A stretch of DNA of 64,000 nt. It comes from Candidatus Altimarinota bacterium. Lineage in GTDB: Bacteria; Patescibacteriota; Gracilibacteria; CAIRYL01; GCA-016699755. Location: the NCBI GenBank assembly GCA_963664295.1, contig OY760935.1, positions 736,001 through 800,000 on the forward strand, given 5' to 3'. Every line of letters begins with the position of its first letter. The stretch's first letter is position 1. The notes below the pieces were generated by a model. It saw only the letters and a program-made list of their open reading frames with translations. It did no database searches and was not told where the DNA came from. This document shows, one piece after another, positions 19,910 through 44,186 of the stretch. Position numbers and translations under genes: made by a program.

Positions 19910-20356
19910 TTGAATATGAAATATTTATCAGCCAACTCACTAAAATTTGCAAGCACTAACAAAATAGACGCAGAGAATTGTCCTGATTTTCAGGGCTTAC
20001 AAACTATAATATCAACACAAGATGAAGTTTTAGCGCGTTTAATCACCTGCATAAACCTAAATCCAGACAATTCATGTACTAAAACAGGACAAAATTGCAC
20101 CTGCCTACAAACAGACGATCTTACGCCCATATCAACAAAAATAATAAATATGGGAGACATAATTTCCATTATTTCAAAAGAAGTAAAATCAACACAATCA
20201 ATAGAGAATTTCAAGCAAAATATTCAAACAATAATCCAAAAAATCCTCAAAGCAATACAAGACGCAGAAGATGACATAAAAACATTTTTTCCAAAAACAA
20301 CCCCAACACACTGCATTAAAAACAGAACCTTCCAAAAACATTTTAAAGAAACCTAA
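19910..20356 (+). CDS. Hypothetical protein
   Basis: 148-aa Cys-containing ORF, no recognisable motif; start may be the ATG at 19916. Confidence 0.55.
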   Translation: MNMKYLSANSLKFASTNKIDAENCPDFQGLQTIISTQDEVLARLITCINLNPDNSCTKTGQNCTCLQTDDLTPISTKIINMGDIISIISKEVKSTQSIENFKQNIQTIIQKILKAIQDAEDDIKTFFPKTTPTHCIKNRTFQKHFKET

Positions 20357-20369
20357 ATCAATAGCTTTG

Positions 20370-21062
20370 TTTGGCGCATTGAAGATTTTTCGTGTGTATC
20401 CTAGGTCAAATAGATATTTAATTGAATAAATTAAAATCCAATAATTAAGGTATTTGTTTTTGTTTTCGCGCTCTTTTAATTTACCTTCAGGGGATTTTTC
20501 GTGTGTATCCTAGGTCAAATAGATATTTAATTAAGTAAATTAAGCACAAAAAAACACCCAGTAATTAAGGTGCTTTTTTGTTTTTGTTTTCGCGCTCTTT
20601 TGACGCCTTGAGGATTTTTTGTGTGTATCCTAGGTCAAAATAAGCTTGGACGACCAATCCACTCTTCTTGCCATCCTTTGGATAGTATTTTCGGTCTTCC
20701 CTGGACCTGCCCCATTGATGTTTTCGAGTCTAGGGCACATATGTCCCTGCTGAAAACGAGGCACTCAGAGCAAGCTCTGAGAAGATGAGCTCTTAAGGCT
20801 AGTCGTGCCAGAAAAGCTACATCGGAAAGCGAAGAAGACGGAACCTTTTCTTATGAAGCAAAAGAGTGTAAAGATGCTAAGAATAATGCTTTTTTTGTTT
20901 TGCTTTCTTGCTCTTTAGTCTTTTCTCTTCTCAAGAAAAGGCTCTTGTCTTTTTCACTTATGGTAAATCTTAAAATTTTCAAAGGTCGTTTTGTTTTTAT
21001 TTGTTTTTTTATTTTTTTGTGTGTATTTGTGTTCGTTTTTTTTGATTTCTGATTTTGTGTTT
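20370..21062 (-). ncRNA. Candidate large structured ncRNA (locus A); strand tentative
   Basis: No ORF of 60 aa or more; minus-strand TTGCCA-17-TAGAAT promoter (21097-21069); boxA-like CTTTGAAAATT (20984-20974); GC-enriched nested helices at 20650-20870. Confidence 0.55.
20384..20639. repeat. Three copies of a 27-nt core GATTTTT(C/T)GTGTGTATCCTAGGTCAAA, in units of 109 and 120 nt
   Basis: Cores at 20384-20410, 20493-20519 and 20613-20639; units 1 and 2 also share TAGATATTTAATT, AATTAAGGT and TTTGTTTTTGTTTTCGCGCTCTTTT. Confidence 0.92.
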
Positions 21063-21284
21063 CAGAACATTCTAATCAAAAAAGCCCAATCTGGCAACTA
21101 AAACCCCTTGCATGAACAATAAAAATATTATTTAAATATAATTTAATATCAAATAAATAGCTTAAATAAGCCATTTTAATTTTTTTGACTTTTACAAAAA
21201 ACATCATATATAATGATATGAATTATTTAGATACAATCAAATAAACACGTAAAATTACGTGCTTATTTTTTATAAACTCATCAT

Positions 21285-22769
21285 CTAAAATCTCTTATCC
21301 TCCAAATACTCAGCTGGCACATATTCAATCGGCAATTCTTCAATTGGCAAATAATCGAGAGGATTAACATGCTCCCCATCTTCAAAAACCTCAAAATGCA
21401 AATGCGGACCAGTGGTCATCACACCAGCACCTTTTGTTCCTGGAGTACCACCAGAAAGACCAATAACCTCTCCTTCTTTTACAGTATCCCCCTCTGTGAC
21501 CAAAATTTTAGAAACATGACCATAAAGAGTAGTTAAATTATTTTTATGAGCCAAAATAATATAAGAATAACCCATACCATTATCTACAACCTTATACACA
21601 TAACCCAAAGCAGGTGCACGAATAACCTTGCCCTGCGCATAGCGAATATCAATAGCATGATGCTTCATACCAAAAGTCACTTCATAACTAGGATCAAGAT
21701 AATAAGCAGTAATACCACCAGAAGGATCAACAGGCCAAACAAAAGGAATTCCCTCATCAGCATCTTCAAAAATCTTACCAACCTCAAAATTTTCATCACT
21801 CTCATTTTCCTCAAATTCCTCACGCACAGTCATAAAAGCATCCTGCTTCTGTGACTCCAAAATCTGCAATTTTTCTCTAATCATCTCCCTATCATCACGC
21901 AAATCTTTAATAGCCTGCACACTATCCTCCATTTGTTCACGAGATTCTTCCCATAATCTCTGATATTCTTTTTGCTTTCCCTGAGTTTGACGAATTAAAT
22001 CTTCTTTTGCCTGCTTTTGCACCTCAATATTGTGCTTCTCCTCTGACAATTTAGCGTTTAATTCTTCCAATCGCTCTTTTTCTTGGTTCAAAACTTTTTG
22101 AGTTTCCTCAACCTGCAACAAGGCCAATTCCATATTGTAAAAAATTTCTCTTTCTGTTTTTTCCCAAGAAGAAAGATACATTTCATTACGCAAATGAGAA
22201 GAAAAAGAGCTATCCGCCAAAAGCAAAGTAATAGTGTTTTTTACCTCATCATCTCTAAGGCGAGCATTTTCCTTTTGAATAAGCTTAAAAAACTTCAAAA
22301 CCACCTCTTTTTGTGCATCTGCCTCTGCTTTTATTTTTTCTTCTTCTTCATAAAGCAAGCCAAGATCGGACTTTTTCTTTAAAATCTGCATTTCAATCGC
22401 AGAAATTTTTTCATTTGTTTGATCAAGTTGTAAGTTTATGTTTTCTAGTTGTTGCTTAAGCAAATTAAGCTCAGAGCGTACCTTAACAAGCATTTGCTCT
22501 GTCACTTGTGTTGCTTTTAGTGAATCACTAAAGTCTTTATATTCCTCATCAAGTGAATATTTTATTCTTTCTAATCTTAGTTTTCCTTCTGCCATACGAT
22601 CAGCAAAACGATCCTTATAAAGCTCCTCCAGCTCTTGTTCAAGATATTTTTCTTCCTCTTCGCTTAATGCTGATGCACTAAAAAACCCTGTCAAAAACAG
22701 TGCTAAAACTAATGTTATTGCTAGTAATACCGATATTTTATTTGTCTTTTTTTTCATATATTTTATCAA
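21285..22769 (-). CDS. Coiled-coil protein with C-terminal M23 peptidase (EnvC/MepM-like)
   Basis: Signal peptide, long coiled coil, HHAIDI, TLYGH, TGPHLHFEV. Confidence 0.92.
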   Translation of the reverse strand: MIKYMKKKTNKISVLLAITLVLALFLTGFFSASALSEEEEKYLEQELEELYKDRFADRMAEGKLRLERIKYSLDEEYKDFSDSLKATQVTEQMLVKVRSELNLLKQQLENINLQLDQTNEKISAIEMQILKKKSDLGLLYEEEEKIKAEADAQKEVVLKFFKLIQKENARLRDDEVKNTITLLLADSSFSSHLRNEMYLSSWEKTEREIFYNMELALLQVEETQKVLNQEKERLEELNAKLSEEKHNIEVQKQAKEDLIRQTQGKQKEYQRLWEESREQMEDSVQAIKDLRDDREMIREKLQILESQKQDAFMTVREEFEENESDENFEVGKIFEDADEGIPFVWPVDPSGGITAYYLDPSYEVTFGMKHHAIDIRYAQGKVIRAPALGYVYKVVDNGMGYSYIILAHKNNLTTLYGHVSKILVTEGDTVKEGEVIGLSGGTPGTKGAGVMTTGPHLHFEVFEDGEHVNPLDYLPIEELPIEYVPAEYLEDKRF

Positions 22770-22859
22770 AGTATTATCTCATAAATAAGCCTTTTTTTCA
22801 AGAAAAACCTCCTTGACGAAGCAAATGAAAAACATAAACAAAAAACAGACTATTTTCTG

Positions 22860-23410
22860 TTGTTACGCCATCGTTGCAAGAACGACGCCAAAGGAGGAGG
22901 ATGCGACAATCCACCCTTGCTGTCATTCTGAGCGAAAAACACACCTTTTCTATCATTCTGAGCGGAAAACACGCCCTTGCTGTCATTCTGAGCGGAATGA
23001 AATGGAGCGAAGAATCTCCTTGTCCATTTGCTCAAATCCTGCCTTAGGTAATTGTGCAGTAATGACAACGGGAGATCCTTCGCTTCGCCTAAAGGCTCGC
23101 TCAGGATGACGAAGTAAGGGGGCTCAGGATGACATTACATTTGTCATTATGGATTTTTTGGGATGTCATTGTGGACTTTTTGGGGTGTCATTGCGGACTT
23201 GATCCGCAATCTTGGGAGGCAGGAGGTGTCATTGTGGGCTACGACCCATTTTTCGCCCCTATCGGGCTTCAAAGGGCAAGTCCACAATCTCCTTGTCCAT
23301 TTGCTCAAGACCTGCCTTAGGCGCCCCTACTTTGTCATTCTGAGCGAAGTCCGCCCAGGCGGATGGAGCGAAGAATCTCCTTGCCCATGTTCTCAAATCC
23401 TGTCTCAGTC
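22860..23410. repeat. Mosaic array of TGTCATT-hairpin palindromic repeats (dRS3/RPE/REP-like)
   Basis: At least 7 TGTCATT heads (e.g. 22921, 22981, 23142, 23164, 23186, 23227, 23333), many followed by a hairpin closing in (G/C)AATC; inverted copies end in ATGAC. Confidence 0.88.
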
Positions 23411-23525
23411 TACCATTTTGGGTTCACTATTGCCCTTCCGGCATTTAAACTAGTACTTATAATTTCTTTGCAAAAATGCCGTTAAAAATTCAACTGAGCA
23501 TAGCGAATAATTTGAATTTTTAGGC

Positions 23526-25687: not shown

Positions 25688-26075
25688 TGTCATTGTGGGC
25701 TTTTTGGGATGTCATTGTGGGCTTGACCCGCAATCTCGGGAGGTGTCATTCCGAGCAAAAAACACACCCTTGCTGTCATTCTGAGCGGAGTGAAACGGAG
25801 CGAAGAGTCTCCTTGAACATGCGCTCAAACACTGCCTTAGGTAATGCAACAGTAATGACAACGGGAGATCCTGAATCGAGTTCAGGATGACAGAAAAAAG
25901 AGGCGGGAGGTGTCATTGTGGATTTTTTGGATTGTCATTGTGGGCTACGACCCGCAATCTCGGGAGGTGTCATTCCGAGCGAATCCTTCGTAGCTTTAGC
26001 GAAGAAGGAGAGCCGAGGAATCTCCTTGGACATGCGCTCAAACACTGCCTTAGGTAATGCAACAGTAATGACAAC
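25688..26075. repeat. Second mosaic array of TGTCATT-hairpin repeats
   Basis: At least 7 TGTCATT heads; shares modules (e.g. CTCCTTG..CAT..GCTCAAA..CTGCCTTAGGTAA) with 22860-23410. Confidence 0.88.
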
Positions 26076-32348: not shown

Positions 32349-33392
32349 TTAATTATTCTCATCTAATATTTTATTCAATCTTCTTATGGTTTCAGAAATC
32401 ATTCTATTGCTTGTTCCTCCTAATGTAACCTCTTCCGTAGTCCCATCTTTTCTATATGCTGTTATTCTTGTTGCTTTAAATTCTCTACTGCTTCCTGAAA
32501 TCTTAAGTGGAATTTTTTCCACAGTCACATCACTAACTTCAGGATTATCTTTTAAAAGAACTCTTAATTGATTTAAAACTGGACCATCAGGTAATCCTGT
32601 GATATTAATTTCATGTTGCAAGTTTGTTGAAGATTTGTCTTCTAATCTTTCTTCGTTTTCTTCTTCAAAATCAGGCTTATTCTCATCTAATATTTTATTC
32701 AATCTTCTTATGGTTTCAGAAATCATTCTATTGCTTGTTCCTCCTAATGTAACCTCTTCCGTAGTCCCATCTTTTCTATATGCTGTTATTCTTGTTGCTT
32801 TAAATTCTCTACTGCTTCCTGAAATCTTAAGTGGAATTTTTTCCACAGTCACATCACTAACTTCAGGATTATCTTTTAAAAGAACTCTTAATTGATTTAA
32901 AACTGGACCATCAGGTAATCCTGTGATATTAATTTCATGTTGCAAGTTTGTTGAAGATTTGTCTTCTAATCTTTCTTCGTTTTCTTCTTCAAAATCAGGC
33001 TTATTCTCATCTAATATTTTATTCAATCTTCTTATGGTTTCAGAAATCATTCTATTGCTTGTTCCTCCTAATGTAACTTCTTCCGTAGTCCCATCTTTTC
33101 TATATGCTGTTATTCTTGTTGCTTTAAATTCTCTACTGCTTCCTGAAATCTTAAGTGGAATTTCTTCCACAGTCACATCACTAACTTCAGGATTATCTTT
33201 TAAAACAGCTCTTAATTGATTTAAAACTGGACCATCAGGTAATCCTGTGATATTAATTTTATGTTTCAAGTTTTCCAATCTTTCTCTGCTACTTGCCTCA
33301 GTGGTTTCTTGTTTTTTTGATAAATTTTCTAAAAACACCAAACGATTTTCTTTGTTGTTTATAAAATCTGTATATTTAATTTGTTTTTTCAT
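32349..33392 (-). CDS. Hypothetical protein made of three 108-aa tandem repeats
   Basis: ORF track; DNA period of 324 nt. Confidence 0.8.
   Translation of the reverse strand: MKKQIKYTDFINNKENRLVFLENLSKKQETTEASSRERLENLKHKINITGLPDGPVLNQLRAVLKDNPEVSDVTVEEIPLKISGSSREFKATRITAYRKDGTTEEVTLGGTSNRMISETIRRLNKILDENKPDFEEENEERLEDKSSTNLQHEINITGLPDGPVLNQLRVLLKDNPEVSDVTVEKIPLKISGSSREFKATRITAYRKDGTTEEVTLGGTSNRMISETIRRLNKILDENKPDFEEENEERLEDKSSTNLQHEINITGLPDGPVLNQLRVLLKDNPEVSDVTVEKIPLKISGSSREFKATRITAYRKDGTTEEVTLGGTSNRMISETIRRLNKILDENN
32353..33273. repeat. About 2.8 near-identical 324-bp tandem repeats (starting 32353, 32677, 33001)
   Basis: Direct comparison; only a few substitutions, concentrated in the 33001 copy. 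Confidence 0.95.
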
Positions 33393-43866: not shown

Positions 43867-43941
43867 TGCCCGGTAGCCAAGCGGTAAGGCAGGGGACTCT
43901 GAATCCTCTATGCGTAGGTTCGAATCCTACCCGGGCAGCCA
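43867..43941 (+). tRNA. tRNA-Gln (anticodon CTG)
   Basis: TGCCCGGTAGCCAAGCGGTAAGGCA...CTCTGAA loop...GGTTCGAATCC...GGGCAGCCA. Confidence 0.96.
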
Positions 43942-43989
43942 TTTAAAAACAGTTGTCACAAAGTGACAATTTTTTTAAATTATTGTTTA

Positions 43990-44125
43990 GGTAGGATCGA
44001 GAACCTGGTTCGACACTCAAGCGAGCGAGAGAATTTGCGCTTGTGCAAAATTCCGAGCAAGCGCAGAAGGCCTTGTTTTTGAGGAGCAAAGCTCCGAAAA
44101 AATGAGCATCCTACCCGGGCAGCCA
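43990..44125 (+). repeat. tRNA-linked structured element ending in an 18-bp copy of the tRNA-Gln 3' end
   Basis: ATCCTACCCGGGCAGCCA at 43924-43941 and 44108-44125. Confidence 0.8.
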
Positions 44126-44186
44126 GTTGCTTAGCGATAATTACAAAATTATCGTCTTTTTTGTCAAAAAACAGTAAATTATAAAT

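Follow-up and report, generated by a model that had tools for sequence, protein, structure and literature searches.

Only a handful of large non-coding RNA classes are known in bacteria, and several of them turned out to act as ribozymes or to form RNA assemblies of a new type. Stable-RNA genes can also carry repeats, as at tyrT of Escherichia coli, which is followed by tandem copies of its 3' end and terminator. The OLE, ROOL, GOLLD and raiA motif RNAs are described as several hundred nucleotides long, with their own promoter and terminator, covarying pseudoknots and loop-loop contacts, and disordered variable linkers; ROOL and GOLLD are linked to phages, and their covarying loop contacts are placed between molecules (PMC12286853). 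The Pseudomonas Hfq decoys CrcZ and CrcY are free-standing RNAs with repeated single-stranded A-rich motifs and common paralogues, and CrcZ titrates Hfq via its A-rich sites (PMC4063720). TIGR arrays consist of 36-nt dual-repeat units or of stem-loop units with two 8-12-nt spacers, are associated with a Nop-domain (Tas) protein and occur in candidate-phyla bacteria (PMC12045711).

The locus analysed here lies in a window of 64,000 nt from a Candidatus Altimarinota bacterium of the class Gracilibacteria (contig OY760935.1, positions 736,001 to 800,000). In keeping with a candidate-phyla host, its RecA is closest (75-76%) to entries labelled Peregrinibacteria, Gracilibacteria or Peribacteria. 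A first-pass annotation of this window had reported three conserved 27-nt cores separated by partly variable segments, and had proposed a processed RNA array, repeated protein-binding modules at the end of a locus, or iterated DNA-binding or recombination sites. The reading that we regard as quite probable is that the cores represent the 3' tail of a predicted minus-strand RNA gene in tandem copies, two of them decayed beyond its terminator, and that this RNA is likely a protein-binding housekeeping scaffold; the scaffold role, taken by itself, is put forward more tentatively below. The array itself is ordinary, and it marks an uncatalogued family of knotted RNAs.

The cores were confirmed at the reported positions, starting at 20384, 20493 and 20613 with spacings of 109 and 120 nt; two are identical and the third differs by one mismatch. 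No fourth copy with up to six mismatches exists on either strand of the complete 1,215,430-base genome, so the recurrence is not a matter of chance. Units 1 and 2 share 96% identity across 51 nt, and full units show 80% aligned identity over 151 columns with block-like indels. The segments between cores, 82 and 93 nt long, had been described as partly variable; they are diverged copies of one another rather than unique spacers. The partial core noted in the leader of the putative transcript was recovered as a 14-nt match at 21013-21026, in the minus-strand leader, while the palindromic hexamer of the cores carries no weight, as it occurs 110 times in the genome with both strands counted. In runs X1-X3, which represent one sample, likely the source sample of the window, a 40-nt stretch common to units 1 and 2 assembles as a separate contig, with roughly double the coverage of the single-copy 129-nt link (17 versus 8.8, 46 versus 22.7 and 27 versus 13.9, respectively). 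These depths show that the assembly is correct and the array is not an artefact.

The array is flanked by a plus-strand 148-aa ORF ending at 20356 and a minus-strand M23 peptidase gene ending at 21285. The ORF (19910-20356) is convergent with the array, matches no Pfam family above cut-off and is also present in a strain represented by a seawater-metagenome contig. The stretch 21185-21268 contains a near-perfect plus-strand promoter-like site (11/12), which points toward the 3' end of the peptidase gene, beside a hairpin that was scored as a terminator on both strands. Elsewhere in the window, 22800-23450 and 25690-26000 hold repeated palindromic stretches that probably represent a small repeated DNA element, as short peptides recur in their translations.

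Strand and ends of the RNA gene were assigned from folding and from comparison with homologues. The 700 nt around the array give a folding z-score of -10.1 on the minus strand versus -1.8 on the plus strand (20 shuffles each), and the stretch from promoter to terminator gives -7.9. All 20 copies from the organism's own order carry a sigma-70-like promoter (8-11 of 12 consensus matches) located 3-4 nt ahead of a common start, end in a hairpin with a U-run and are 370-700 nt long. Conservation of the promoter and ends across these copies places the gene on the minus strand and, together with the folding, led us to reject a plus-strand transcript. A protein-coding gene was also rejected: the longest sense ORFs range from 3 to 134 aa and share no common peptide. 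One member folds poorly (z -0.5, 8 shuffles). On these sequence criteria the predicted RNA gene is very probably real, and we infer that it would be transcribed from the minus strand as a free RNA. Its elements and those of the array are listed in Table 1.

Table 1. Predicted elements of the RNA gene and its downstream repeats, in window coordinates
Feature	Position	Strand	Remarks
-35 box of predicted sigma-70-type promoter	21092..21097	-	10/12 consensus matches, 17-nt spacer
-10 box	21069..21074	-	start predicted about 21063-21062
Predicted non-coding RNA gene, ~520 nt	20546..21064	-	fold z -7.9, homologues, no Rfam match
Unstructured A/C-rich 5' leader	20990..21064	-	holds the partial core (21013-21026); an A-rich motif lies near 21002
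Long variable arm P2	20827..20959	-	missing in the shortest members
Core-closing helix, 5' strand	20824..20832	-
Hairpin P3	20784..20823	-	its loop (20806-20799) and that of P7 are complementary
Small hairpin and variable arm P4	20708..20781	-
Predicted H-type pseudoknot	20680..20707	-	stem 20707-20693; A-rich linker 20690-20688
Core-closing helix, 3' strand	20668..20676	-
Hairpin P7	20647..20661	-	loop side of the predicted loop-loop contact, 20657-20650
Last hairpin P8	20594..20645	-	core 3 (20613-20639) forms its 5' strand and loop
A-rich 11-nt motif	20579..20589	-	present in most family members, at varying positions
Intrinsic terminator hairpin, 14 pairs	20546..20581	-
Unit 2, decayed copy of P8, A-rich motif and terminator	20415..20523	-	core 2 20493-20519; two deletions in the terminator
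Unit 1, partial copy of P8 without terminator	20365..20414	-	core 1 20384-20410

From 5' to 3', the predicted fold comprises a short hairpin, a variable A/C-rich leader, an optional long arm, the 5' strand of the closing helix, P3, the variable arm P4, P5, an A-rich linker, the 3' strand of the closing helix, P7, P8 and the terminator. In the pseudoknot, two invariant loop G residues (20701-20700) pair with two invariant C residues (20681-20680) across the A-rich linker. When 13 named pairs of the closing helix and pseudoknot were scored in 33 aligned cores, 87% of cells were paired and 9 of the 13 pairs had changed on both sides; none of 500 shuffles reached the observed value and all slid controls were lower, in a comparison where the structure was derived from the same sequences and related copies are not independent. 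In the set of 81 copies, the two G-C pairs of the pseudoknot are invariant (80 of 80), and its third pair is retained in 70 of 80 copies and occurs as five pair types. Five types were likewise seen for one pair of the closing helix, intact in 70 of 71 copies; another closing-helix position was often unpaired (54%). Twelve positions are at least 90% conserved, and eleven of them lie in or beside the pseudoknot. A tree of the 33 cores was poorly resolved and does not order the duplications.

Among 20 clear cases, 14 show a P3 loop able to form 5-8 bp with the P7 loop, and the paired sequence exists in several versions. An automatic test of 71 members scored cognate loops at 9.3, compared with 8.4+-0.2 for permuted partners (maximum 9.1 in 300) and 7.9+-0.2 for shuffled loops, a noisy measure in which kin are not independent; scores of at least 11 were reached by 28% of cognate and 18% of non-cognate pairs. 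Paralogues within one genome have differing loop pairs, each matched inside its own copy. Of 79 members, 59 carry the A-rich 11-mer, in 1-4 copies whose position varies, and the other 20 lack it; as controls, 3 of 79 antisense sequences and 8 of 57 flanking sequences contain it. The shortest member, about 310 nt, retains little beyond the 5' hairpin, the core, P7 and the terminator. Pairing of a leader motif with the closing helix, or its mimicry of the 16S tail, was considered and dropped after inspection by eye revealed no covariation.

The genome contains one paralogue (G000:C1:1190915-1191411, plus strand; L049:1289-1785), found by blastn near 1,191,200; aligned globally, the two sequences (517 and 497 nt) agree at 318 positions. 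The gene facing this second copy, in convergent orientation, encodes dehydroquinate synthase II, an arrangement shared with genome G006. A first blastn search of 60 relatives gave matches in 13 genomes, mostly T-rich noise with two real, partial matches, and an exact 15-nt motif was found in 7 of 401 genomes, four of these being chance coding matches. With a sequence-only model built from five copies, 11 of the 20 genomes searched in the order were seen to hold 20 loci between them at E<=2e-10, the five training copies included, and a wider model reached further families. Searching by blastn from a distant member matched 12 of 101 genomes (10/10 of its own family and 2/8 of another). Of 151 genomes in the class, 29 were matched by the final model, and two of these (G069 and G089) proved false on inspection; in a second order, 67 of 121 genomes were matched. 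Twenty of the weaker loci there were fetched and all were supported, a local profile confirming 19 and inspection by eye the remaining one. When 40 genomes representing 12 additional families were searched leniently, 12 weak matches emerged, four judged by eye and the rest by profile score, with G041 as the sole true member. One member that the profile missed, L170 (G400:C27:10700-12050), has a pseudoknot hairpin with a longer stem and loop in which the pairing is kept. Among 142 genomes of other classes of the phylum, the sequence-only model found no match, a result that cannot show absence, and the lack of matches outside the known range may reflect the limits of the model. The family totals 81 distinct copies at E<=0.001 in several orders of Gracilibacteria, a breadth given by profile searches.

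Genomes carry 1-3 copies of the RNA, often as whole-gene tandems. Such tandems lie between eno and the serine dehydratase gene at L086/L097 (G219), L087 (G189), L091 (G231), L092/L099 (G120), L134, L138 and L140, and in G219 an orphan ORF is bracketed by two near-identical copies. Neighbouring genes are constant within a family but not from one family to the next (examples are eno with serine dehydratase, lgt, truB, comM, purN and mechanosensitive channels); they are ordinary housekeeping genes, mostly convergent or divergent, and the downstream ORF lies on the opposite strand at 32 of the 41 loci with a call. A scan of 50 neighbours detected no reverse transcriptase (RT), nuclease effector or transposase, a RAYT-like gene recognised by eye adjoins one copy, and viral contigs and phage records contained no true match to the family. 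These varied, unrelated and mostly opposite-strand neighbours indicate a free-standing, vertically inherited chromosomal gene, and the same observations reject a riboswitch or cis-regulatory leader. That a reduced 1.2-Mb genome keeps two copies, and relatives across several orders 1-3, points to a needed function in a group of mostly unknown biology.

Searches with cmscan in E-value mode, covering both strands of the window stretch and sets of 18 and 20 loci, returned no Rfam match near the gathering score, and the covariance models of OLE, ROOL, GOLLD and raiA were unmatched in the same material. The RNA resembles those classes in that its sequence exceeds 300 nt and predicts its own promoter and terminator, covarying tertiary contacts and no conserved ORF; it differs from them in the absence of an Rfam match at 39 loci, in the order of its helices and in its chromosomal setting, away from tRNA islands and phages. 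The literature examined yielded no such RNA in this group; subscription papers and supplementary candidate lists, which lay outside its scope, could contain one. The family is uncatalogued, large, knotted and spread through much of Gracilibacteria. Several known RNAs were rejected individually. SRP RNA gave no RF00169 match, and SRP54 (Ffh) just one sub-threshold match in the genome; the genes for RNase P RNA and tmRNA both sit elsewhere in the genome and do not match here; a retron, DGR or other RT-associated RNA is not indicated, with no RVT_1 match in the genome and no RT beside the copies scanned. Likeness to the SRP, twister, pistol, preQ1 and c-di-GMP folds is superficial and finds no Rfam support.

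As to function, we tentatively favour a protein-binding scaffold, at somewhat less than even likelihood. The reason for this reading is that the A-rich motif has traits expected of a protein site, being single-stranded, specific to one strand and not tied to a fixed position; and because the shortest member consists of little more than the 5' hairpin, core, P7 and terminator, the knotted core is taken as the working part. The RNA would be abundant and stable, its closing helix, H-type pseudoknot with A-rich linker and P3-P7 contact folding into a compact, nuclease-resistant body, and the 1-4 movable A-rich motifs may serve as the docking site of a dedicated protein. The covariation-backed model of the closing helix, pseudoknot and loop-loop contact, with a minimal member of about 310 nt, makes the fold directly testable in vitro. 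A broader view, possible but clearly less likely than the scaffold, is that the RNA is a core RNA machine of Gracilibacteria with its own housekeeping reaction or assembly, whether a new ribozyme, an RNP or an RNA-only multimer; its setting would be cells without detected SRP, 6S RNA, Hfq or CsrA, in which a double-knotted RNA is present in most genomes of several orders and is often duplicated.

It is unlikely, at perhaps one chance in five, that the RNA acts alone, either through intermolecular loop-loop multimers like those of ROOL, GOLLD and OLE or as a ribozyme or ligand-binding fold in trans. The covarying loop-loop pairs, the pseudoknot with invariant bases and A-rich linkers, and the crowding of highly conserved positions around it would all suit such a role, and the comparable covarying loop contacts of ROOL and GOLLD proved intermolecular (PMC12286853). 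However, the invariant bases are few for a catalytic or ligand-binding core, and the loop pairs that differ between paralogues and match within each copy suit intramolecular pairing or strict homo-assembly; the phage association of ROOL and GOLLD also has no counterpart in the viral contigs and phage records searched.

Somewhat less probable still is a decoy role, in which the RNA would titrate a global regulator with affinity for A-rich sequence, in the manner of CrcZ and Hfq, with the extra units adding sites on read-through. Like CrcZ and CrcY (PMC4063720), the RNA is free-standing, of similar size, has repeated single-stranded A-rich motifs (1-4 copies in most members) and commonly has paralogues; its own promoter and terminator, the frequent whole-gene duplication, the strand-specific and movable placement of the motifs and the intact motif in unit 2 also fit a decoy. 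Against it, neither Hfq nor CsrA was found in the genome, which rejects a CsrB/RsmZ- or CrcZ-type decoy acting on its cognate protein, and the motif is not enriched in 70-nt windows before genes (25 matches versus 9-33 for 12 shuffled motifs). A conserved double-knotted core, which further sets the RNA apart from CrcZ and CrcY, would be needless in a decoy, and unit 2 lies past a strong terminator. A stand-in for 6S RNA (or an Ms1-like RNA) binding RNA polymerase is considerably less likely again. No 6S RNA was detected in the complete genome, the single-gene, vertically inherited pattern is that of a housekeeping RNA, and the long forms do possess a long irregular arm; yet this arm is missing in short members, the conserved part would be a compact knot rather than a rod with a central bubble, and 38 loci gave no Rfam 6S match.

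Set against this gene, the array is very likely a by-product of the duplication of its tail. Core 3 supplies the 5' strand and loop of P8, and the 11-15-nt segment described as variable is the 3' strand of the same hairpin; the segment enclosed by AT-rich stems is the terminator arm. In unit 2 that arm is truncated, two deletions having removed the terminator arms while leaving the A-rich motif intact, and unit 1 repeats P8 alone. Folding z-scores against shuffles are -4.9 for unit 3, -0.05 for unit 2 and -0.56 for unit 1, and units 1 and 2 lie past the terminator of the RNA gene. The near-identity of units 1 and 2 over 51 nt amid a diverged remainder needs gene conversion or recent recombination. 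A unit-1-like stretch is also present past the terminator of the paralogue (7 of 2000 random 100-mers score equally), so that copying could have run in either direction.

Comparison with the seawater-metagenome contig shows how the number of units can change. The two sequences are about 98% identical (12 differences over 627 bp), and on that single contig, at depth 4, 20426 is joined to 20536, so that exactly one 109-bp unit (20427-20535) is lacking; two changes in P8 keep its pairing. The decayed part of unit 2 departs from its template far more than the strains differ from each other, which indicates that the duplication is likely older and that the seawater strain likely lost a unit. Slippage or unequal recombination would have duplicated the tail of the RNA gene, a process for which many tRNA genes of this genome offer parallels, and one unit would later have been lost in the other strain through recombination between the 40-50-nt repeats. 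Such an array was seen in one of 76 family members with enough downstream DNA, and two others have a 24-51-nt repeat.

The proposals of the first-pass annotation fare unevenly in this light. It was right to place the repeats where a structured-RNA locus, likely transcribed, comes to its end, and the partial core in the leader, with the minus strand as the sense strand; the comparison of unit number that it suggested did reveal a difference between strains. Neither a processed array of scaffold plus variable loop nor iterated DNA-binding or recombination sites find support: the variable segment pairs with the core, and units 1 and 2 fold no better than shuffles, lie past the terminator and are missing in other members. 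The contrary case that it had named, a decaying tandem duplication, fits best, though the changes fall in blocks. That the units are functional and processed, as guides or iterated binding sites, is highly improbable: the conserved cores, block-like variation and strain-dependent unit number would agree with it, but the inter-core segments are mutually homologous rather than unique, units 1 and 2 fail to fold, other members lack the array, the units have no match elsewhere in the genome or in phage records, and Cas1, Nop, TnpB, IS110 and RT were all not found in the genome.

The array shares with CRISPR and TIGR-Tas loci short conserved repeats with variable sequence between them, and was rejected as either. 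CRISPR spacers are unique and about 25-45 nt long, in contrast to the longer, homologous inter-core segments here, and a search of the genome for Cas1 and Cas12f/TnpB domains returned nothing, in line with the reported absence of cas genes. Units of 109-120 nt, in which the short variable segment pairs with the core, are equally unlike TIGR arrays. The Nop domain PF01798 is absent from the genome, although diverged Tas domains could escape Pfam; PF01548 (IS110) gave one 14.5-bit match, below cut-off and 155 kb away; and no Tas gene was recognised in the flanks, which hold the M23 peptidase on one side and the ORF without an assigned family on the other.

The arrangement instead parallels the tyrT-type repeats, in which the last part of an RNA gene with its terminator and trailer recurs head to tail, decaying and variable in number; it differs in that the gene here is a new non-coding RNA, not a tRNA. 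Within this genome, copies of a gene's own 3' end lie downstream of 16 of 38 ARAGORN genes (tRNA/tmRNA), compared with 18 of 300 random sites, and at three of these genes they are plain head-to-tail tail repeats like the present array. Perfect head-to-tail repeats of 80-85 nt, comprising a tRNA tail and trailer, are located at G000:C1 559162 (tRNA-Glu), 965409 (tRNA-Phe) and 1034804 (tRNA-His).

Other tRNA genes carry inserts of ~150-190 nt, on either side of which the final 17-22 nt of the host tRNA are repeated exactly, at 43867-44130 in the window and near 32591, 274706, 488826, 606549 and 1068128 of G000:C1. An internal module of 70-140 nt, 88-100% identical, is common to inserts at unrelated tRNA genes (Gly, Arg, three Ser and Gln), a second module occurs at G000:C1 136190 and 557369, and some inserts are tandem. 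This looks like a small non-coding element moving between tRNA 3' ends, rather than a set of single integration scars.
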